Assembly: GCA_963810935.1 (NCBI GenBank)
Contig: CAWEPK010000001.1
Span: forward strand, 122,546 to 186,545
From: an uncultured delta proteobacterium
GTDB taxonomy: Bacteria > Desulfobacterota > Syntrophorhabdia > Syntrophorhabdales > WCHB1-27
Length of the DNA: 64,000 nt
Direction: 5' to 3'
The notes under the pieces: model-generated
Seen by the model: only the letters and a program-made list of their open reading frames with translations
The model's database searches: none
What the model was told of the DNA's origin: nothing
Position numbers and translations under genes: made by a program
In this document: piece after piece, positions 4,449-15,710 of the stretch
Numbering within the stretch: the stretch's first letter is position 1
How the letters are laid out: the number at the start of each line of letters is the position of its first letter

Positions 4449-4477
4449 TTGACACAACGGCGCCAATTTTGTATACA
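4449..4477 (+). promoter_or_regulatory. Putative sigma70 promoter of the Phe leader / MBL hydrolase
   Basis: TTGACA (4449-4454), 17 nt spacer, TATACA (4472-4477). Confidence 0.55.
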
Positions 4478-4519
4478 TATACGGCAACATTGAACGTGCA
4501 GACAGGAGAGGAGCTTAAA

Positions 4520-4576
4520 GTGACGACGCACAACTATTCCTTTTTCTTTTTTAGGAGGGCTCATCCTTGCCCCTGA
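4520..4576 (+). CDS. Phe-rich attenuator leader peptide MTTHNYSFFFFRRAHPCP (18 aa)
   Basis: RBS AGGAGAGGAG (4504-4513); GTG 4520; TAT TCC TTT TTC TTT TTT; TGA 4574-4576; overlaps the antiterminator arm. Confidence 0.8.
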   Translation: MTTHNYSFFFFRRAHPCP

Positions 4577-4675
4577 CGTGAGATAGCGACAGGAGCCGTG
4601 GGTGAGCCCTTTGCGCGCCCGCGGCTTTTTTGTTTCGATTGAAAGGCCGTGGGACCAAAAGTCTCACGGCCTTTC
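4556..4675 (+). promoter_or_regulatory. Transcription attenuator: antiterminator, terminator and second hairpin
   Basis: AGGGCTCATCC (4556-66) pairs with GGGTGAGCCCT (4600-10). Mutually exclusive terminator AGCCGTGGG (4594-4602)/CCCGCGGCT (4618-26) plus T-tract. Second hairpin GAAAGGCCGTGGGAC/GTCTCACGGCCTTTC (4641-4675). Confidence 0.8.
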
Positions 4676-4721
4676 GGCTTGTTCGGGCACCATCAGACCA
4701 TCGATAAGGAGGACGTTTTAA

Positions 4722-5657
4722 ATGGCCGTCAACATCCAGAAACCAATCCGGCTGACCGGGCACCTTTTCCAGTTGGGGACCCCTGCCTTTCCCGTCTATC
4801 TCTCGATAGGGAAGGAAGCGATGCTCGTGGAGGGCGGAACAGGCGCCACGTTCCGGATGATCGTCGACCAAATCGATTATCTCGGGATCGACCCGGAAAC
4901 GATCAAGTATATAGTCCTGACCCATTCCCACCCCGACCATATAGGCGCCGTCCCGCACCTTCAGCGCGCCTGGCCGCATATGCGGCTCCTCACGAGCGCG
5001 ACGGGCAAAGAGGTGCTGGGCAAGACCACGCTCTTCAAGCAGTTCCAGATCGTAGACCTGGGGATAGCGCAACTCATGAAGGCAAAGGGAGAGATAGACG
5101 CGCTGCCCGACCCGATAAAATATTACGCCTTCCAGGTAGACTCCGTCGTGAAAGAGGGAGACAGGATCGATTTGGGGGGAGGCATCGTATGGCGCGTTTA
5201 CGAGACGCCCGGCCATTCACCCTGCCATATCTCGCTTTTTGAGGAGCGGGAGAAAACCCTGGCCCTGGGGGACGCGGGCGGCTTTTACGTGCCCGGAAAG
5301 TGCGCCTTCTGGCCCAACTATTTCGAGTCCCTCGACAAGTACTGCGCGAGCCTCAGAAAGCTCGCCTCTCTTCCCGCCTGCCGGGCCGTCCTTAGCCACA
5401 ACGGCATGATCGATGGCGACGTATCGGGTCACCTGCAAAAAGCCATGAAAGCGGCCGAGCTTTATCACCTGGAGACGGTCGCAAGGGTAGCCCGCGGGGA
5501 AAGCGCGGAAAAAATCGCCATGGACAAGGCCAGGTTCGTAGACAGCCTGACGGACATCCAGCCTTTCCGGACCATATACGACCTGTGCGAGCTGATGATT
5601 AAGAATTCCACCTCAAACGGCAAAGGCGATTACCTGTCCAGGGCCGCCGGTGAATAG
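4722..5657 (+). CDS. MBL-fold metallo-hydrolase (possibly PqsE-like thioesterase class)
   Basis: THSHPDH (HxHxDH), TPGHS, GDA and LSH metal ligands; RBS AAGGAGGA. Confidence 0.88.
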   Translation: MAVNIQKPIRLTGHLFQLGTPAFPVYLSIGKEAMLVEGGTGATFRMIVDQIDYLGIDPETIKYIVLTHSHPDHIGAVPHLQRAWPHMRLLTSATGKEVLGKTTLFKQFQIVDLGIAQLMKAKGEIDALPDPIKYYAFQVDSVVKEGDRIDLGGGIVWRVYETPGHSPCHISLFEEREKTLALGDAGGFYVPGKCAFWPNYFESLDKYCASLRKLASLPACRAVLSHNGMIDGDVSGHLQKAMKAAELYHLETVARVARGESAEKIAMDKARFVDSLTDIQPFRTIYDLCELMIKNSTSNGKGDYLSRAAGE

Positions 5658-5729
5658 GACGCAAAAAACGGGTGGGTAAGCCGGGCCTTTTAGAGCGTTT
5701 TGCAAAGTTAAGCACCGATTCTCTCGGTC

Positions 5730-5805
5730 GTCACCCCGGTGAAAACCGGGGTCCAGTACTTGCAAACTCTTAAAAATACTGGATGCCGGCTTCCGCCGGC
5801 ATGAC
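5730..5805. repeat. REP-like double palindrome between convergent genes
   Basis: GTCACCCCGGTGAAAACCGGGGTCCAG ... CTGGATGCCGGCTTCCGCCGGCATGAC: two inverted hairpin units. Confidence 0.7.
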
Positions 5806-5910
5806 GAAGGGAGACGAACCGGCGGAACTCAAACGGGAATGAATTCTGCGGAATGATATAACGCCCATGCCTGCCCACACCCGGTGTTCGCGCCTGCTTC
5901 TTTTAAGCGC

Positions 5911-7347
5911 TTACTTCTTGATGCCCGCCAGCCTTTTGGCCGCGCGCTTTTTGCTCTCAAGGTCCGTTTCGCGATAAATCGTTACCCTGTGCGCCTCAGG
6001 CGAGCCGCCGCCGTGGATGTCGGAGATCGTGTCCGCGCTTTCCAAGGCCATCTTCTCGACGAACCTGTACATCTTCACGCGGTCCCCTACGTCATGGCCG
6101 CCCGCCGCTTTGAGGTACTTCTTCAAAAGCGGCCCGACTTCCGGGTTGTCGAAGTCCTTGTCGGATGGAAGGTCCGCTACGAACCCGCCGCAGATATCGA
6201 TCATAAGGCGGATCGCCTCGGCCACTTCCTTGCCCTCGTGGAGCTTGGAGGCGTTGGCCAGCACCGTGTTGATATAATAGTTGCCCGAAGGCTGCCTGCG
6301 TCCCTCGTAGGAAGCCGCGAGGCAGCATGCGTAGAGCGTCTCCGCCCTGTGGATCATGTCGATGATCTTCTGCTTGTGGTGGCTTACCTTTGCGGTGCCG
6401 TTATAGTCCATCAGCGTCAGGGCCGCACCGATCATGCAATCGATCTTGCCCGACTTGCAGCCGCCGTGGCTCTGCCTGTGGAGGGACGAGAACTTTACTA
6501 CCATATCCTGGGCGAACTCCGTCTCGCCGCACATAAAAACACGTTCCCAAGGCACGAACACGTCGTCGAAAATGACCGTCGGGCAGTACTTCGAATAGAG
6601 CGTGTTCCCGATGTCGCAACCGTCGATTTCGCGCATGTCGAGCGTAGACCTGCCGACCACGTGTATCACCCCCTTCGTATCCGCCGGGACCGCGAAGGCA
6701 AGGGCGTAGTCCTTGTCGTCCTTGCCCATCGCGCGCGTGGGCAGGACGATCAGCTCGTGGACCGACAGCGACCCCGTCTGGTGGGCCTTCGCTCCGCGCA
6801 CGACGATGCCGTCCTTCTTTCTTTCCACTACGCGCATGTACATGTCTTTGTCCGGCTGCTCCGTGGGGCCGAGGGAGCGGTCGCCCTTCACGTCGGTTAC
6901 GCCTGCGTTGGCGGCCAAGTCGTTCTTCTGCACGTGCTTCAGGAATTCGGTGAAGCGGGCGTTGTATTCCGTCCCGTATTTCCGGTCGATGTCATAAGTG
7001 ACGATGGCGAGCGTCGAGAGGCAGTCGAGCCCCGTGCAGCGCTGGTGGCAGGTGCCCACGAAGTTGCCGAGCCCTCGGTTGACCTTTACCCGCGCCACCA
7101 GGTCTTCGATGCTCGAAGGGGGCAGGGTGAAGCGGTTGACCGGCTCGTTGATGAGGGGTGACTGCGTGACTACGTAATCCCTGTACTCGTCCATGCCCGC
7201 TATCTCATAAGTCGCCCCGGTCGCCTCTATGCCTGCCCGCAGGCGCGGGTGGTCCACAATGTTCGTAAGGCGCTCGCCGAACATGTAAGCCGTGGGATGC
7301 AAAGCCCGCAGCGACTCTATATACTCTTCTCTTGTTTTAAGTCCCAT
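5911..7347 (-). CDS. 4-hydroxybutyryl-CoA dehydratase (AbfD) / HpaB-family FAD, [4Fe-4S] protein
   Basis: Start MGLKTREEY; CHQRC, TDVKGDRS, RGAKAHQTG, HRQSHGGCK, HGGGSPEA. Retains the Cys/His cluster ligands of the AbfD branch. Confidence 0.85.
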   Translation of the reverse strand: MGLKTREEYIESLRALHPTAYMFGERLTNIVDHPRLRAGIEATGATYEIAGMDEYRDYVVTQSPLINEPVNRFTLPPSSIEDLVARVKVNRGLGNFVGTCHQRCTGLDCLSTLAIVTYDIDRKYGTEYNARFTEFLKHVQKNDLAANAGVTDVKGDRSLGPTEQPDKDMYMRVVERKKDGIVVRGAKAHQTGSLSVHELIVLPTRAMGKDDKDYALAFAVPADTKGVIHVVGRSTLDMREIDGCDIGNTLYSKYCPTVIFDDVFVPWERVFMCGETEFAQDMVVKFSSLHRQSHGGCKSGKIDCMIGAALTLMDYNGTAKVSHHKQKIIDMIHRAETLYACCLAASYEGRRQPSGNYYINTVLANASKLHEGKEVAEAIRLMIDICGGFVADLPSDKDFDNPEVGPLLKKYLKAAGGHDVGDRVKMYRFVEKMALESADTISDIHGGGSPEAHRVTIYRETDLESKKRAAKRLAGIKK

Positions 7348-7381
7348 TTCCCGTAACCTCCTTGCAATATGATGATGCGAA

Positions 7382-8083
7382 TCAGAATTCCGATCGTTCC
7401 TGCTCTGCCAACATCTGCCGGACGGCATCCAAAACCTGCCGCTTGACGCTCGATACGTGCCCCGCAATAATAGAGCGCGCCTTCTTCGCGTCCTTCCGGA
7501 CGATGCAGTCGTATATCTGCTGGTGCTCCTCGTCGACCGACTGGAGCGATGAAACGGGGAGATAATTACCGCCGTACTTGAGAAAAAGTATGTCGAACAG
7601 GTTTTGAAGGATACGCATTTGCGTTTCCTTGCCCGATATCGACGCAAGGGTCAGGTGAAACTCCTTGTTTTTGAAAAGCCTTTCTTTCAGGTAGGACTCC
7701 CGCTGCGCAGACCTGTGGGCCTCGAGTGCGGACTTCAGCTCCGCAAGCGCCTTAGCGTCCATGCGCTCCATGGCAGGCTCGACCAGCGAAGTCTCAAGCA
7801 GCTCGCGCAGCTCGTATATCTCCTCTATCTCCTTCGTGCTGAACGGCGCCATGACGTAGCCCCGGTTCGCCTCGTGGCGCACGAACCCCTGCAGCTCCAG
7901 CCATTTCAGCGCCTGGATGATGGGCGTCGGGCTCATCTGCAGCCGCTCCGCAAGCTCCCGGTAGGCGATCTTTTGGCCCGGCACAAGCTCTTTATTGTAG
8001 AGCATCCGGCGCAGGCCCTGGTATGCGGCCCGGCTCCGGTCCTCTCCTTCACCATGCGTGTGATCAGTCACGATTTTTGCCAC
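7382..8083 (-). CDS. GntR/FCD-family transcriptional regulator
   Basis: wHTH ELAERLQMSPTPIIQALKWLE; FCD-type EIYELRELLE and EEHQQIYDCI. Confidence 0.9.
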   Translation of the reverse strand: MAKIVTDHTHGEGEDRSRAAYQGLRRMLYNKELVPGQKIAYRELAERLQMSPTPIIQALKWLELQGFVRHEANRGYVMAPFSTKEIEEIYELRELLETSLVEPAMERMDAKALAELKSALEAHRSAQRESYLKERLFKNKEFHLTLASISGKETQMRILQNLFDILFLKYGGNYLPVSSLQSVDEEHQQIYDCIVRKDAKKARSIIAGHVSSVKRQVLDAVRQMLAEQERSEF

Positions 8084-8200
8084 TACTCGTCCCCCCTTGT
8101 GGACGAACAAGCAACTTAATCTAAAATTTAATTAACTTTTCGCCTGGGGTCAAGCAAATTATGGGCTTCACGAGAAAGACTGTTGAAAGGCTCGGCGGGT

Positions 8201-8833
8201 TTATGCAGCTTTTCTGGCCTTGAGCGTCTTCCTGAGTCTTATCAGGCCGGCTTCTATCCTCACGAAGGAGATGCTCTTTCGGTCCATCTTGTCCAGGTCC
8301 AGGCCGTACCTGCCGGCAAGGTCTTTTACAATGGATAGCGGCTCGGGGTCGGCTTTTTTCCAGTATGGCCTCAACTCCCTCAGGAATATGTTGACCGTCA
8401 CGGGGCCGACGCCGTAAAAGCCGAGTATCCTGTTTTCCAGGTCCCGGCTGTCCGCGGCCTCACGGTGCAGGCGGCTTAGGCTGCCCCCGTAATCCTTGAT
8501 GAGCTGCTCGCAATTGCGCAGGATCTCGCGCGATGTCTTTTCGTCGTAGCGGACGTATCCGCCTTCCCTCATGATGGGGTGGACGAGGAAATTCCAGCCT
8601 GCCTCAATGATGGCGTGCGGTGTCAATTTACCGTGTTTTTCGAAGGCCCGATAAGTACGCTCGGCGACCGACTCCGATATGCGCGCCCCGAACAGGACGC
8701 TTGCGAGGAACCACTTGAACAGCTCGGCATCGTTTCCTCCCTTGAGATCGATGCCGAGCTCCTCGGCATACGTCCGGCTCTTCTTGAGGGAATTGACGCT
8801 AATGTCGCGGCCCTCCGCCGCTTTCTTCCCCAT
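8201..8833 (-). CDS. HhH-GPD / endonuclease III-like protein
   Basis: LFKWFLASVLFGARIS and HhH-like GFYGVGPVTVNIFLRE. Confidence 0.65.
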   Translation of the reverse strand: MGKKAAEGRDISVNSLKKSRTYAEELGIDLKGGNDAELFKWFLASVLFGARISESVAERTYRAFEKHGKLTPHAIIEAGWNFLVHPIMREGGYVRYDEKTSREILRNCEQLIKDYGGSLSRLHREAADSRDLENRILGFYGVGPVTVNIFLRELRPYWKKADPEPLSIVKDLAGRYGLDLDKMDRKSISFVRIEAGLIRLRKTLKARKAA

Positions 8834-8901
8834 GCAACCAACGTAATCTCTTTTTTTTCAAAAGAAAAGGGGGTTTACGTTGGATTAAGCTCGACCGGTT
8901 T

Positions 8902-9234
8902 TTAGCAATGCTCGCAAAGGCTTTCGCATTTCTGAGGCTCGTGTGGCGCCGCCTTCGTCAGCTCCGACCGCAGCGTAAAGCCCGAGCCTAAAGCACCCTC
9001 TGTATAATCGATCTTTATCGGCTTTACCCTGCCAAGCAGTGTTTTGTCGACAATGAACGTCAGGCCTTTCTCCGTGAAGATATGATCGTCCTCCCTTTGC
9101 TCGTCGAGGCCCATCACGAGATACGGCCCCTTCCATCCGCCCTCGGTCATCAGGACCCTTATGCTACGTGTCCCTTCGCGCCCTTCGAGGAGCTGCTTCA
9201 TCACTTCCGATGCTTTTTCGCTTACCTCAAACAT
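8902..9234 (-). CDS. IscA/HesB-family protein
   Basis: MFEVSEKA...IRV...GGWKGP...MGLDE...FIVDKTL: HesB-like pattern. Confidence 0.82.
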   Translation of the reverse strand: MFEVSEKASEVMKQLLEGREGTRSIRVLMTEGGWKGPYLVMGLDEQREDDHIFTEKGLTFIVDKTLLGRVKPIKIDYTEGALGSGFTLRSELTKAAPHEPQKCESLCEHC

Positions 9235-9383
9235 GCGAGCCTCCCTGGCTTTAGTTCAGGGCGAGGCAACCGCCTGCCCCGGCCTTTCGTATCGATCGCT
9301 TTGAATGGAATCTAATGGTGGGAGGATTAATTGTCAACCGGCCGATAGCCGGAGGGATTTCCGACGGGGCGCCAGCCCGGCCG

Positions 9384-11195
9384 CTACCCGTTTAAAGCGG
9401 CGCGGCGGCGTTCGAGATCGCCGAGGATCTGTTTGCGCAGGCGGATGCTGGCGGGGGTGACCTCCACCAGCTCATCGTCGTTGATGTAGGAGATGCACTC
9501 TTCCAGGGTCATCCGAATGTACGGCGTCAGGATGACCGCGTCGTCCGAGCCGGATGCCCGCATGTTCGTAAGCTTCTTGCCCTTGGCCGGGTTGACCACA
9601 AGGTCAGTCTCCCGTGAATGCTCGCCGATAATCTGCCCCTGGTAGACCTTCTCGCCGGGGCCCAGGAAAAGCCGCCCGCGCTCCTGGAGGTTGAACAGCG
9701 CGTAGGCGACGGTCGTGCAGTTATCCATGGCGACGAGGACCCCTTTGGTCCGGTTTCTGATCTCCCCCGCGTATTCGGCGAACCCGGCGAAGACGTAGTT
9801 CATAACACCCATGCCGCGTGTCTCCGTCAGGAACTCCGAGCGGAAGCCGAGGAGCCCCCTGGTCGGTATCCTGTACTTGAGCCGCGCCATGCCGTTCTTC
9901 TGGTCCATCGCGAGGAGCGACCCGCGCCTGCCGCCGAGGTTCTCGATGACCCTGCCCATGTAGTTCTCGTCAACGTCGATGATCAGGTCCTCATAAGGCT
10001 CCAGCGTCTTGCCGCCCTCTTCCCGCAGGATGACGTGCGGGCGGGTTACCTGGAACTCGTATCCTTCCCTGCGCATCTTCTCGATGAGGATCGACAGGTG
10101 CAGCTCGCCTCTGCCGGAGACCTTGTACCCCTGCGCGTCCTCAAGCTCTTCGACGTTGAGGGCCACGTCCGACAGGGTCTCCTTGAAGAGCCTGTCGCGC
10201 AGGTGACGGGACGTGACGTACGTTCCTTCCTTGCCGTAGAAAGGCGAGTCGTTCGGGACGAAGCTCATCGAGACGGTCGGCGGGTCCACCATAATGCCTA
10301 CAAGCGGGATGGGGTTGGCGGCCTCCGTCAGCGTTTCGCCGATCGTGATCGACTCTATACCGGCCACGGCTACGACTTCGCCCGTGCCCGCCTCGTCCGT
10401 CTCCTTCTTCTCCGCGCCCCTGAAGCTGTAAATCTTCCTTACGCGCGCGGGGCGAGGTGTGCTATCCGGCGTGGCTACTACGATTTCCTTGTCTGTACGT
10501 ATGCTGCCGGAAGTGATCTTGCCGATGGCGAGCCTGCCCAGGAAAGGCGAATAGCTGAGCGAGCTTACGAGCATTTGCAAGGGGCCTTCGGGGTCTCCCG
10601 ACGGGGCGGGGACGGACTCCACGATCATATCGAAGAGGGGCATCATCGAGCCGGTCTTCAGGGTGTGGTCGTTAGTGGCATAGCCATCCTTGGCGGAGGC
10701 GAATATGACGGGAAAGTCGAGAATATGGTCGGGCGCTTCCAGTTTTACGAAAAGGTCGAAGACCTCGTCCACGACAGCATCGCAGCGCGCCTGCGGCTTG
10801 TCGATCTTGTTGATGACGACGATCACGGGCAATGCGAGCGCAAGGGCCTTCTTCAGAACGAAATAGGTCTGCGGCATAGGCCCCTCGGCAGCGTCCACGA
10901 GCAAGAGCACGCCGTCTGCCATCTTGAGCACGCGCTCCACCTGCCCACCGAAATCGGCGTGGCCCGGCGTGTCGATGACGTTTATCAGGTGGCCCTTGTA
11001 AAAGAACGAGCCATTCTTGGATGCGATGGTAATGCCCCGCTCCCGCTCCAGGTCCATCGAGTCCATCAAGCGCTCCTCGACAACCTGGTTCTGCCTGAAC
11101 AGGCCGCTCTGCCTGAACAACTGGTCTACGAGCGTTGTTTTACCGTGATCGACGTGTGCTATGATCGCTATATTGCGTATTTTTGACTGTAACAT
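9384..11195 (-). CDS. typA: Translational GTPase TypA/BipA
   Basis: [46 protein letters not shown]. Confidence 0.97.
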
Positions 11196-11356
11196 GGTCC
11201 CTTTTGGCGCACCCGAATGACTTATTGTCGAGGGGTCTTGACTACGAGGCAATAGTATACAATAAAATCGTGCGATAATCAAGGGTTTGAACGTGCTTTT
11301 GCGATGAGGTGAGGGGTGATCATCCCGGCTCAAAAGGAGGGGACGGGCCGGCTGCC

Positions 11357-11731
11357 CTAGTTGATGCCGGTCGCCGCCCGGTCCAGCAGGCCGTTCAGGT
11401 AGTCGGCGCAGGGCACGATAGTACCGTCCCCGAGCCGGATCGTATACAGGGCGCCCGTCGTGGAGGAGCGCGTGGCTATACGTGCGACGAACTCCCTCGA
11501 CGTCTGCACCTTATCGCGGTTCGCCTCCCATTTCCGTTTCAGGAACCACGCGGCCGTTTTCGAGCTGTACGCCTTGCCGTTTCTGACGAACCGGGCGTCC
11601 GTCATGCCTTCCACGTGCTTTAACAATCCTTCTATCTTCTGTTGCTCATCCGGGCTGACCGCAGCCTGCCCGAAGGCCGCAACGAGCAGTAGTATAGCTG
11701 CCCCTGAAATGACCGTCCTGCCGAATACCAC
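11357..11731 (-). CDS. Exported hypothetical protein (DUF5329-like); start uncertain
   Basis: Signal peptide, then FVRNG...KW...FVARIATRSSTTG..Y. Confidence 0.65.
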   Translation of the reverse strand: MVFGRTVISGAAILLLVAAFGQAAVSPDEQQKIEGLLKHVEGMTDARFVRNGKAYSSKTAAWFLKRKWEANRDKVQTSREFVARIATRSSTTGALYTIRLGDGTIVPCADYLNGLLDRAATGIN

Positions 11732-11920
11732 TTTCCTTATGTTCTCCTTCCTGCCTCCTCGACGTAAGCGTAATGGTATTATTGCAACTGTGCCTCTGCC
11801 TGTCAACGGCGGGTTTCCCTTATTATTTTCTTGCGCCGCCGCCCGGTTGCGATAATAATATGTAAAAGCTTTCACAACCAGAGGCTCACTTGAGCCCGAA
11901 AGGAATAAGGAGGTGCCGTA

Positions 11921-12476
11921 ATGGCGCGAGTCACGGGGAGGGAAGAGAAAAAGAAAAAGATTATCGAAGTCCTCAACAAAGCGAGGGCTATGGAGACTGC
12001 AAGCAATTCACCAATACATGATCCAGCACTATAACCTGGACAACTGGGACTACGGCGAGCTGGCAATGAACGTGAAGCTGGTCGCAATCGACGAGATGCG
12101 CCATGCCGAGATGCTTGCGGACAGGATCGAGGAGCTAAGCGCAGAGCCGACGAGCGACCTCGCTGACCGCGTTGAAAGAGGCCAGCCGGTCGAGGCCGTT
12201 TTTACCTTCGACATGCAGCTCGAGGACGACACGATTGCGGTCTACAACGACTTCATCCGCATTTGCAGGGAGAACGGAGACAGCATAAGCGAAAAGCTGT
12301 TTCAACTGCTGAATGATGAGGAGCAGATACACTACAACTACTTCGATAACGTGGCCGAGCACATAGAGAAGCTGGGGCAGACGTATTTGGCGAAAATAGC
12401 CGGGACGCCCTCCGCTACAGGCCTGAATACTCAAGGGTTTGTGGCAAGGCAGAGCGGCGGAGCGCCTGCCGCGTAA
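11921..12476 (+). CDS. bfr: Bacterioferritin / ferritin-like protein (apparent +1 error near 11996)
   Basis: ATG 11921 with RBS AGGAGG gives MARVTGREEKKKKIIEVLNKARAME, then (+1) LQAIHQYMIQHY; ExxH motifs DEMRHAE and DEEQIH. Confidence 0.85.
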
Positions 12477-12513
12477 CGTGCGCCGGGCTGAAAAACGTGG
12501 TTTGAGAGGTCTT

Positions 12514-12792
12514 TTAGCGCTTCGTCCTTTCGAAACCTTCCTCTACGTATACGCCGACCGCGTAGAACCCGTCTACCTCTTTGGCGTATTCGTAAGGGTT
12601 CCTCTCTTCCGGGACCGCCTGCAAATGCGCGCCTTCAGGGACGGGGATGTCGAGCAGGGGCATCTCCGCCTCCCGCAACCCCGTAACGACAACCCGCACA
12701 GTGGGCCGTGTATCGCTCCAGGGGACCAGGTAAGCGTGGCCCTTGTGGTCGTACCAGCCCAAGAGTCTTATGTGGGTCCAGTCCATCTTCAT
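12514..12792 (-). CDS. Small hypothetical protein (internal frame uncertain)
   Basis: 92-aa ORF co-oriented with the adjacent zinc-ribbon gene. Confidence 0.45.
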   Translation of the reverse strand: MKMDWTHIRLLGWYDHKGHAYLVPWSDTRPTVRVVVTGLREAEMPLLDIPVPEGAHLQAVPEERNPYEYAKEVDGFYAVGVYVEEGFERTKR

Positions 12793-12816
12793 AATTGTTC
12801 TTCCCCAGGGGCAAAG

Positions 12817-13002
12817 TCAGTCCTTGGCGGCCTCTATCTTCGCAATCTGTTCCCGCACCTCCTGCAGCATGTGGCCGTGCAGCGTCAGCTTGAGCTTGCA
12901 AAAGGGGCATTCGATCTGGGCCCCTTCCACCATTTCATCGACCGGGTAATCCTTCTTCCTCCCGCAGACGGGACAGCCGAAGGATATGGTTTTACTCGTC
13001 AT
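12817..13002 (-). CDS. Small CxxC...CxxC zinc-ribbon protein
   Basis: CPVCG and CPFC; RBS AAGGAG before ATG 13002. Confidence 0.7.
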   Translation of the reverse strand: MTSKTISFGCPVCGRKKDYPVDEMVEGAQIECPFCKLKLTLHGHMLQEVREQIAKIEAAKD

Positions 13003-13147
13003 AGCGTCTCCTTTGCTCTTTCCCCATTGTAACATCTTGGCTCGAAAAATGACAACAGAAGCAAAGTGAGGCTAAAGCATCTTTGTTTTCAGGGTATTTG
13101 TTATTCGGCTTTAATTACGGGGAAAAGGCGCGGGAATATCCCGGCCC

Positions 13148-14326
13148 TTACCCGTAAAGCTTACCGACTTCCAGAAAGGCTTCCCTCGACTTCTCGATCA
13201 CGTCCATTTCCGTACAGAAGGCGATCCTGAAATAGCCCTTCCTCCCGAAGCCCACGCCCGGCACCGCCAAAATCCTGTGCTGCTGCAGGACCCTGATGAA
13301 CTCGACGTCGTCGGCTATGGGCGACTTCGGAAAAATGTAGAACGTCCCTTCCGGCTTCAGGACCTTGAAACCCGACTGGACGAGGATATTGTAGATCGCG
13401 TCCCTTTTCTGCTGGTAGCCCATCACGTCGACGCTGTTCTTCTGGAACCTGCCGACCAGCCGCTGCATCAGCGCGGGCGCGTTGATGAAGCCGAGTATCC
13501 TGTTCGCAAAGATCATGGCGTCGATCAGCGGCTTCGCGTCTTCCAGCCGCGGCGAGACGGCAATGTAGCCTATGCGCTCGCCGGCGAGCCCCAGGTCTTT
13601 CGAGTGGGAGAAGACCGAGATCGTGTCTTCATACAGGTTGAAGGCGTCGGGCAGCACAATGCCGTCGAAGACGATCTTGCGGTAGGCCTCATCGGAGATG
13701 AGGAATATTCTGCGGCCCTCCCGCTTTTTGCGCGCAAGAAGGTCGGAGAGCGCGCGCAGCTCGTCTTCATGGTAGACCGTACCCGTCGGGTTGTTCGGCG
13801 AGTTGACTATGATCGCCTTTGTCCTGTCCGTTATGGCAGCCTCGACGGCCACCGTGTCGATGCGGAAATCTTCGGTCGTCTCGACAAGGCGCATCACCCC
13901 GCCGTGGTTCTCTATGTAAAACATGAATTCAACGAAGAAGGGCGACAGCACCAACACCTCGTCGCCGGGGTCGAGTATCGCCTTGAGCACCACGTTTATG
14001 CCGCCGGCGGAGCCTACCGTCATGATGATATGGTCCTGGGTGAAGGGAAGACGTGAGTTTTCCCTGTGGAAGCCCGCTATCTGTGCGCGTACTTCCTCAT
14101 AGCCGCCGTTCGACATATAGCGGTGCATCCCCCGCGTCCCGGAGATGACCATGTCGCACAGTTCCTTCTTCAGCTCCTGGGGCGGCTCCGCGATGGGGTT
14201 GCCGAGGGTAAAGTCGAAAACCGAGTCCGCGCCATAGGCCTTCTTCAGCCTCTCGCCCTCTTCGAACATCGCCCTTATCCAGGACGAGCTTTCCATGAGC
14301 TTTGTTATCCTGTTCGACGTAACCAA
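13148..14326 (-). CDS. PLP-dependent class I/II aminotransferase (probably aromatic amino acid)
   Basis: NSPNNPTG, SDEAYR, SHSKDLGLAGERIG; in the operon behind the Tyr/Phe leader. Confidence 0.92.
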   Translation of the reverse strand: MVTSNRITKLMESSSWIRAMFEEGERLKKAYGADSVFDFTLGNPIAEPPQELKKELCDMVISGTRGMHRYMSNGGYEEVRAQIAGFHRENSRLPFTQDHIIMTVGSAGGINVVLKAILDPGDEVLVLSPFFVEFMFYIENHGGVMRLVETTEDFRIDTVAVEAAITDRTKAIIVNSPNNPTGTVYHEDELRALSDLLARKKREGRRIFLISDEAYRKIVFDGIVLPDAFNLYEDTISVFSHSKDLGLAGERIGYIAVSPRLEDAKPLIDAMIFANRILGFINAPALMQRLVGRFQKNSVDVMGYQQKRDAIYNILVQSGFKVLKPEGTFYIFPKSPIADDVEFIRVLQQHRILAVPGVGFGRKGYFRIAFCTEMDVIEKSREAFLEVGKLYG

Positions 14327-14330
14327 CCCT

Positions 14331-15521
14331 CTACCTCCCGTTGTAGCGCTTGCCCGCCCTCAAGAAACCGGGCCGCGCCTTAACTATCGTCTCCATCGGC
14401 ACGCAATAGGCTATGCGGAAATATCCGGGCCTGCCGAAACCGCGCCCGGGCACCATCAGTATCCTCTCTTCTTCCTGCGTCCTGAAAACGAACTCCACCT
14501 CGTCCTCGATGGGCGACTTCGGAAACATGTAGAAGGCGCCTTCCGGCTTCACGCACTCGAAGCCCGCTTCCGTGATCGTATCGTAGAGGAAATCCCTGCG
14601 CTGCTTGTAATCATCGATGCTGACCGAGTTCCTCTGGAACTCTCCGACCACGCGCTGCATCAGGGCAGGGGCGTTGACAAAGCCGAGCGCACGTATGGCG
14701 ATCATGAGGCCCGAGACGAGAAGCTGCGCGTCGGCGATGCGCGGCGAGATGGCGACATATCCTATCCTCTCTCCGGGTAGGGCCAGATCCTTCGAATGGG
14801 ACGTAACGGTCATTACGAGGTCGTAAAGTCCGAAAAGGTCCGGCAGGGGCGCGTCCGTATAGACGAGCTTCCTGTAAGCCTCGTCCGCGACCATGAATAT
14901 CTCGCGCCCTTTTCGTCTCTCCGCCATAAGCATCTCTGAAAGCCCTTTCAGGCTCTCGGCCGAATAGACGGCGCCCGTCGGGTTGTTAGGGCTGTTTATC
15001 AGCACCGCCTTTGTCCTGTTCGTGATCGCCGCCCCTATGGCCGCCAGGTCGAGCTGGAAATCGGGCCGCGTCTGGACTATCTTCGGTATTGCTCCGAAAT
15101 TCTCTATGTAGTTTTTGAACTCCCAGAAAAAAGGCGACGGCAGTATGATCTCGTCGCCCCGGTTCAGCATTGCCTTGAAGAGTATGTTGAGCCCGCCGGC
15201 GCAGCCGACCGTCATGAACACGTGCGTCGCAGTGAAGGACAGGCCGGACCGCTCGGAAAGGTAGGCCGCGATTTCCTCGCGCACCGTCTCGTACCCGTTG
15301 TTCGGCATGTAGCGGTGCATCCCGACCGTGGCGCATTCCAGGGTCTCGATCAGCCGGGCGCGCAAGCCGGCTGGGGGCTCGATGTCGGGGTTGCCCAGCG
15401 AGAAGTCATAGACGTTCTCGACGCCGTACTCCTTCTTCATGCGGATGCCCGCCTCGAACATCTTCCGCGTCCAGCCTTCCTGGTCCATCACCAGTTTTCT
15501 GATCTTGTTCGAAAGGATCAC
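14331..15521 (-). CDS. PLP-dependent class I/II aminotransferase, tandem paralog
   Basis: NSPNNPTG, ADEAYR, SHSKDLALPGERIG; RBS GGAGG before GTG. Confidence 0.92.
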   Translation of the reverse strand: MILSNKIRKLVMDQEGWTRKMFEAGIRMKKEYGVENVYDFSLGNPDIEPPAGLRARLIETLECATVGMHRYMPNNGYETVREEIAAYLSERSGLSFTATHVFMTVGCAGGLNILFKAMLNRGDEIILPSPFFWEFKNYIENFGAIPKIVQTRPDFQLDLAAIGAAITNRTKAVLINSPNNPTGAVYSAESLKGLSEMLMAERRKGREIFMVADEAYRKLVYTDAPLPDLFGLYDLVMTVTSHSKDLALPGERIGYVAISPRIADAQLLVSGLMIAIRALGFVNAPALMQRVVGEFQRNSVSIDDYKQRRDFLYDTITEAGFECVKPEGAFYMFPKSPIEDEVEFVFRTQEEERILMVPGRGFGRPGYFRIAYCVPMETIVKARPGFLRAGKRYNGR

Positions 15522-15534
15522 CTAACCCTCCAAT

Positions 15535-15638
15535 AAAAGAGGCCGTGAAATCCACGGCCTCCTGTATAAACTAAAAGGCCATGGGCCGTTTGCACCCATG
15601 GCCTTATGCCCCTCGCGGAGCACCAAGTCACGGGTGCA
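15535..15638 (-). promoter_or_regulatory. Transcription attenuator with two tandem terminators
   Basis: Minus strand: TGCACCCGTG (15638-29) pairs with CATGGGTGCA (15600-591). Terminator 1 AAGGCCATGGG/CCCATGGCCTT-TT (15605-15573). Terminator 2 GAGGCCGTGG/TCACGGCCTC-TTTT (15561-15535). Confidence 0.82.
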
Positions 15639-15675
15639 TGCTAAAGAAGTAAAAATAGACCTTGGTGCGGTTCAT
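15628..15675 (-). CDS. Tyr/Phe-rich attenuator leader peptide MNRTKVYFYFFSMHP (15 aa)
   Basis: ATG AAC CGC ACC AAG GTC TAT TTT TAC TTC TTT AGC ATG CAC CCG TGA; ATG follows the -10 box by 6 nt (probably leaderless). Confidence 0.82.
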   Translation of the reverse strand: MNRTKVYFYFFSMHP

Positions 15676-15681
15676 AGCGTT

Positions 15682-15710
15682 AATATACGATTATCCCATT
15701 CAGGTGTCAA
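15682..15710 (-). promoter_or_regulatory. Sigma70 promoter of the leader / aminotransferase operon
   Basis: TTGACA-N17-TATATT. Confidence 0.75.

Follow-up and report, generated by a model that had tools for sequence, protein, structure and literature searches.

The pheL and pheM leaders follow the same scheme as the trp attenuator, a leader open reading frame (ORF) being coupled to an antiterminator. In the trp leader the ORF carries cognate codons and antiterminator and terminator exclude each other, and the his attenuator possesses an extra hairpin ahead of its terminator, for which a role in lowering basal read-through has been proposed (both from PMC1183508). Two leaders of this general kind lie in a 64,000-nucleotide stretch of DNA (the window; G000:C1:122546-186545) from the 93.5% complete genome G000 of an uncultured member of the Syntrophorhabdales. 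Leader A, on the plus strand, precedes a gene for a metallo-beta-lactamase (MBL)-fold hydrolase and leader B, on the minus strand, a pair of aminotransferase genes. Judged from their sequences and from folding models, both are likely Phe/Tyr leader-peptide attenuators. Whereas the trp scheme has a single terminator and nothing that passes the switch on to a further stop, each has two serial hairpins, T1 and H2, joined by a cross helix between the 3' arm of T1 and the 5' arm of H2. The reading preferred here, to which a probability of about 0.63 is assigned, is that these are ribosome-controlled attenuators in which a single stall at Phe/Tyr codons would disable two serial terminators through a relay of alternative pairings. 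The relay itself, whether it acts on one working terminator or on two, is highly probable.

The sequence-only reading of this DNA knew of no such relay as a standard feature of classical attenuators. A classical attenuator does have one, namely the his leader, and related stems with it. Read by eye, a GGAAGA...TCTTCC stem is common to the middle hairpin and the terminator of the E. coli K-12 his leader; the 3' arm of the middle hairpin is complementary to the 5' arm of the terminator, and no U tract follows the middle hairpin. The window leaders resemble hisL of Salmonella and E. coli in having a leader peptide with regulatory codons and a middle hairpin whose 3' arm is able to sequester the terminator 5' arm. 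They differ from it in that usually both hairpins, rather than the last alone, carry a U tract, in the absence of His codons and of sequence homology (the leaders are rich in Phe, Tyr, Trp, Leu, Ile or Val), and in the reuse of the cassette at many operons. The element works like the his relay and is not homologous to hisL, and because the switching principle is known from the his attenuator, the surprise is limited. What looks new is the U tract on both hairpins within one widely reused cassette that is absent from Rfam; at the gathering threshold two tRNAs were the sole Rfam matches in the window, and the best E-value over both leaders was about 1. A chain of antiterminator, co-terminator, co-antiterminator and terminator was reportedly predicted in delta-proteobacteria by Lopatovskaya, Seliverstov and Lyubetsky in 2010; the geometry seen here fits such a scheme of four helices in which neighbours exclude one another, and this work may already describe the element. 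Chains of RNA helices in attenuation are credited to the same authors' 2010 paper (PMID 20198868) in PMC4833913, and a literature search that left subscription journals mostly uncovered found no description of the element beyond this citation and nothing on the lineage; PMC9413887 contributed nothing further.

The four arms named in the sequence-only reading were found where it had placed them and are complementary, G-U pairs included, and both leaders have the same parts: an upstream ORF with a Phe/Tyr run, an antiterminator, T1, the cross helix and H2. In leader A (plus strand) the 18-codon leader peptide begins with GTG (4520-4576), has a Shine-Dalgarno (SD) sequence at about 4504-4513, and contains a Tyr codon at 4535-4537 and four Phe codons at 4541-4552; the leaders of other MBL loci are likewise Phe-rich. 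Folding predicts an antiterminator at 4556-4610 (arms 4556-4566 and 4600-4610), and folding together with a terminator search places T1 at 4591-4636 (arms about 4591-4604 and 4616-4629, U tract 4626-4635). The cross helix (4618-4653) unites the T1 3' arm (4618-4628) with the H2 5' arm (4643-4653) in 11 pairs. H2 itself (4639-4683; arms 4639-4655 and 4661-4677) has the weak U tail that had been remarked upon (4 U in 9 nucleotides, against 8 in 9 after T1), and may be a poor terminator. The promoter of leader A is marked by a -35-like hexamer, TTGACA (4449-4454), which lies outside the 12 promoter matches and is paired with a -10 region having no consensus match.

Leader B (minus strand) is preceded by a sigma-70-type promoter (15682-15710; 11/12 matches, 17-nucleotide spacer). 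Its 15-codon leader peptide (15628-15675) has a Tyr-Phe-Tyr-Phe-Phe run at 15657-15643 and an ATG located 7 nucleotides beyond the -10 box. The leader ORF starts 35-38 nucleotides from the -35 box in 43/65 aminotransferase loci with an assignable -35 and leader; this conserved spacing and the position of the ATG suggest that leader peptide B is probably translated in leaderless fashion. Folding places the antiterminator at 15591-15638 (arms 15638-15629 and 15600-15591, with a small hairpin inside), T1 at 15568-15605 (arms 15605-15595 and 15585-15575, U tract 15576-15568), and the cross helix at 15552-15584, between the T1 3' arm (15584-15576) and the H2 5' arm (15560-15552). H2 (15532-15563; arms 15563-15552 and 15548-15537, U tract 15540-15532) is followed directly by an SD sequence at 15531-15526. 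Leader ORF, antiterminator arms, T1, cross helix, H2 and U tracts are thus all seen in the sequence, as are the conservation and covariation described below.

The folding energy of both leaders beats all 200 shuffles (z -3.7 and -4.1). The stem consensus GCCRTGG...CRYGGC that had been proposed is present in both, but taken alone it is unspecific, with 134 matches in the genome. Among 645 terminator-like hairpins genome-wide there are six tandem pairs, and a strong arm-to-arm duplex (-15.9 to -21.2 kcal/mol) occurs in three of these, the two window elements and one with a Trp leader, compared with only -1.7 to -7.2 kcal/mol in the remaining three. The genome holds three elements, the third being on contig C10.

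From this anatomy we infer termination at each stop, its timing and the response to amino acids. Under Phe/Tyr shortage the ribosome would stall and the antiterminator would tie up the 5' arm of T1. The 3' arm of T1, left without its partner, would then capture the emerging 5' arm of H2, so that neither stop would form in time. The likely gain would be lower basal read-through. The likeness of the T1 and H2 stems would follow, because the relay requires it. Individual copies may rely on one stop or the other, leader A presumably mostly on T1. The domino-like inference of the sequence-only reading is backed by conservation, directional covariation and folding, which are taken in turn.

That reading had named a lack of conservation of hairpin 2 as grounds for giving it up; in fact both hairpins were parsed in 70/80 aminotransferase loci and in 13/13 MBL loci, and the ten aminotransferase loci without both comprise eight from Chloroflexota, one lacking upstream DNA and one with T1 only. 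The antiterminator duplex is more than 3 kcal/mol better than the shuffled mean in 79/83 loci. A covariance model (R1) was built from 56 hand-picked cores, and the conjecture of a lineage-wide module is borne out by its matches in 96/96 Syntrophorhabdales genomes (E <= 0.01, reverse-strand echoes counted). At E <= 0.001 it matches in 97/151 genomes of the phylum of G097, as well as in 30/101 genomes of the phylum of a Spirochaetes record and 14/101 of the phylum of a Dehalococcoidia record, many of the matches in these last two phyla being weak and some of the 17 inspected having no clear leader. A metagenome pattern scan gave at least 119 loci, 20 of which passed the filter. A loose pattern search across the order gave matches no better than a reversed control and was not used.

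Stems that resemble each other are bound to be cross-complementary. The cross helix, between T1 3' and H2 5', was for this reason set against the outer pairing of T1 5' with H2 3', for which the relay has no need. Of the cells in the training alignment, 95.6% are paired in the cross helix (1/500 shuffles reach this value) and 91.3% in the outer pairing (4/500). The full set was assembled from the 56 training rows and 131 model-aligned matches (187 in all); dropping 17 echoes and duplicates left 170 elements, a set that takes in neither the top 30 loci at order level (L214-L243) nor the weaker matches from the phylum. Cross-helix cells are paired in 1454/1530 cases. Permuting the H2 arms globally gives 1404, and permuting them inside gene clusters gives 1427 +/- 3.8, with 0/2000 permutations of either type reaching the observed count. 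At core position 3 the T1 3' - H2 5' combinations are 56 C-G, 7 C-A, 30 U-G, 75 U-A and 2 U-C (n=170), and at position 4 they are 143 A-U, 17 G-U, 6 G-C, 2 A-C and 2 others (odds ratio 25). Discordant cells favour cross over outer pairing by 151 vs 55 (110 vs 36 in the 114 non-training elements), and clusters by 18 vs 4 with 5 ties. The bias is seen where the change strengthens H2 (position 3, 25 vs 6) and where it weakens H2 (position 2, 10 vs 0; position 4, 8 vs 2), so that GC content alone is no explanation. There is thus covariation between the 3' arm of T1 and the 5' arm of H2, with changes that favour cross over outer pairing.

Folding was examined at the first pause, at the second pause and at full length with the ribosome modelled as a block. 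At the first pause antiterminator A reaches 0.81-1.0 with a stalled ribosome and 0 with the ribosome at the stop codon. In leader B at the second pause, stalling yields antiterminator and cross helix (0.95-1.0), and a ribosome at the stop codon yields T1 at 1.0, H2 at 0.91 and the cross helix at 0. Leader A switches cleanly at the first pause, and its cross helix reaches 0.91 at the second if the T1 5' arm is held away. Across the 170 elements at the second pause, removal of the T1 5' arm brings the cross helix above 0.5 in 130; H2 exceeds 0.5 in 158 if T1 is free to form and in 166 if its 3' arm is shuffled. When no ribosome is present, the antiterminator forms at the first pause in both leaders, and a search upstream of it found no strong hairpin of the pause or protector kind.

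A number of results weigh against a double-terminator relay. With the ribosome stalled at the last Phe codon, leader A goes back to T1 and H2 at equilibrium, and in the full-length RNA H2 re-forms in both leaders; the relay must therefore be kinetic. H2 still wins the simulated ON state in 37/170 elements. The E. coli his leader, when folded at equilibrium, likewise keeps its terminator even with a stalled ribosome, so that equilibrium folding can miss a proven switch. Within the cross helix an A-C mismatch occurs at position 3 in 7/63 elements, positions 5 and 6 are biased the other way (7 vs 11 and 6 vs 11), and no cross bias is seen in the largest cluster, that of the aminotransferases (14 vs 15), nor in the ADH-synthase cluster (3 vs 6). 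Since the elements share descent, p-values from these comparisons are overstated. Moreover, different phyla retain the GCCRYG core, as do four leaders (L256, L257, L259 and L264) that have a single intact hairpin with the same stem motif, and this core conservation is not accounted for by the relay alone.

At least 5 U in 9 nucleotides are found after T1 in 152 elements, after H2 in 157, after both in 142 and after neither in 3 (n=170). The 18/170 elements with fewer than 5 U after T1, several of which have a strong H2 tail (L359, L360, L374 and L294), would suit a plain his-type relay with one working terminator, in which T1 is mainly a switch hairpin, H2 is the stop, and the U run after T1 is kept for pairing with purines ahead of T1 and H2; the his leader, after all, functions with a middle hairpin lacking a U tract. 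This is a serious alternative, though an unlikely one, given that most elements have kept the tract after T1 and that in leader A the strong tract follows T1 and the weak one H2. The single-hairpin leaders with the same stem also speak against it, as they imply that a T1-type hairpin likely terminates alone.

The resemblance of the two stems might instead have arisen by duplication or conversion of a terminator, or reflect a motif read by a protein, the cross pairing being a by-product and H2 being overcome in some other way. The retention of the GCCRYG core would be expected on those terms, the outer pairing is itself above shuffles, and the cross helix is broken at its centre in seven elements. 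Such an origin predicts symmetry, yet the changes are biased to cross pairing; in some elements all four arms change together (L288), in L401 and L405 the three arms legible by eye agree, and a constitutive second terminator would silence the gene. We consider this explanation improbable. It is very improbable that H2 is no terminator and acts post-transcriptionally, whether by stabilising the 5' end, by serving as a nuclease site or by modulating how the first gene is translated. Full-length leader B does re-form H2, and the 3' arm of T1, once free, is predicted to pair over the SD sequence; many aminotransferase loci also have H2 near the start codon. Against this, a U tract follows H2 in nearly all elements (157/170) and its distance from the start codon varies from about 10 to more than 200 nucleotides.

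With the relay of two terminators as the preferred reading, the genes under its putative control may be considered. Leader calls cover 168 non-window elements, a cognate-codon leader ORF being called in 155: 103 are Phe/Tyr/Trp, 37 Trp, 7 Leu, 3 Ile/Val, 3 Thr/Ile, 2 His (these being mis-assigned Ile leaders), and in 13 the leader is weak or missing. The clusters of genes downstream have representatives that match DAHP synthases, ADH synthase, TrpE (two clades), TrpD, a TrpB-like enzyme, AHAS, LeuA, LeuB, acyl-CoA dehydrogenase, PaaK-like ligases and a periplasmic binding protein. In relatives the gene fits the sensed amino acid for aroF, ADH synthase, trpE, trpD, trpB-like, leuA, leuB and ilvB. 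A specifically aromatic regulon, as had been proposed, is not upheld: the cassette also stands ahead of ilvB, leuA, leuB and acyl-CoA dehydrogenase genes, with Leu, Ile or Val leaders, and the module is thus mostly, not only, aromatic. In G081, of the same family, it heads an aroF-aroB-aroD-aroE/K-aroA-aroC operon, and the MBL gene, equipped with a leader of its own, comes after aroC; in G083, where aroC was also located, it heads an aroF-led cluster ending in pheA.

The gene behind leader A (4722-5657, plus strand) specifies an MBL-fold hydrolase (PF00753) that falls under the cut-off for each of the best 25 NCBIfam families listed; an identity as beta-lactamase was rejected because it scores 74 bits where the cut-off is 240. 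Converging on this gene are a GntR regulator and a protein of the HpaB family (5911-8110, minus strand), and the HpaB-like ORF (5911-7647), considered as a member of the leader A operon, is ruled out by its location on the minus strand. Downstream of leader B is a class I/II pyridoxal phosphate-dependent aminotransferase of the PRK06836 family, over cut-off (14331-15521, minus strand), which likely shares an operon with a second PRK06836 aminotransferase (13148-14326, minus strand); the closest named aminotransferase relatives are in Syntrophorhabdales metagenome-assembled genomes. Searches of G000 for chorismate synthase, prephenate dehydratase and TrpE found none, nor was chorismate synthase found in three other genomes of the genus; it was found in 48/96 genomes of the order. 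These absences suggest aromatic auxotrophy or salvage in G000, and because of them the window aminotransferases may make Phe and Tyr from salvaged keto acids.

Several other loci deserve mention. The third element of G000 (L213:3386-3683, minus strand; G000:C10, about 15385-15697) has a four-Trp leader, behind which the trpB-like ORF is a 47-codon remnant followed immediately by a 363-amino-acid aminotransferase-like ORF; control by this Trp attenuator may now have passed to another gene. At G000:C15:76964-77041 (minus strand; L249) R1 matches weakly (E 0.29), on a single similar hairpin ahead of a probable cold-shock gene. Among the single-hairpin leaders, with genes named by eye, L256 and L257 (G099 and G098) are Tyr/Phe leaders before a probable 2-hydroxyacyl-CoA dehydratase subunit, and L259 and L264 (G096 and G097) are Trp leaders before a probable trpS. 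At L122:701-761 (minus strand) there is a T1-like hairpin with the same core, an H2 that is not intact and no R1 match at E <= 1e-8; the start of the ORF behind it resembles, by eye, an Erm/KsgA rRNA methyltransferase. Cassette-like elements L387, L390 and L391, in the phylum of G100, precede genes identified by eye: one, behind a leader rich in Asn, is a probable asparagine synthetase A, and another a probable tyrosyl-tRNA synthetase. Ile-rich leaders with the cassette stand before acyl-CoA dehydrogenase genes at L197, L208, L281, L282, L294 and L295, which hint at Ile synthesis from branched fatty acid. With Phe or Trp leaders, the cassette also precedes PaaK-like CoA ligases (L342, L356, L358 and L211) and periplasmic binding proteins (L280, L348 and L368), loci that are consistent with salvage of aryl acids.

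A wider interpretation, tentative and on balance doubtful, is that this is an uncatalogued portable double-terminator cassette with a locked GCCRYG core, reused with varied leader peptides across Desulfobacterota, Spirochaetota and some Chloroflexota, in which one stall flips two real terminators and the core is perhaps read by an unknown factor. Its list of targets in genomes that, like G000, yielded no chorismate synthase (MBL hydrolase, aminotransferases, phenylacetate-CoA ligase homologues and importers) would then point to unknown routes of aromatic amino acid salvage. If both hairpins terminate, the arrangement is a compact natural means of reducing attenuator leak. In anaerobes that have received little study, the cassette is a marker by which amino-acid regulons can be searched for, and since the leader codons name the amino acid that is sensed, they suggest functions for genes such as that of the MBL hydrolase.

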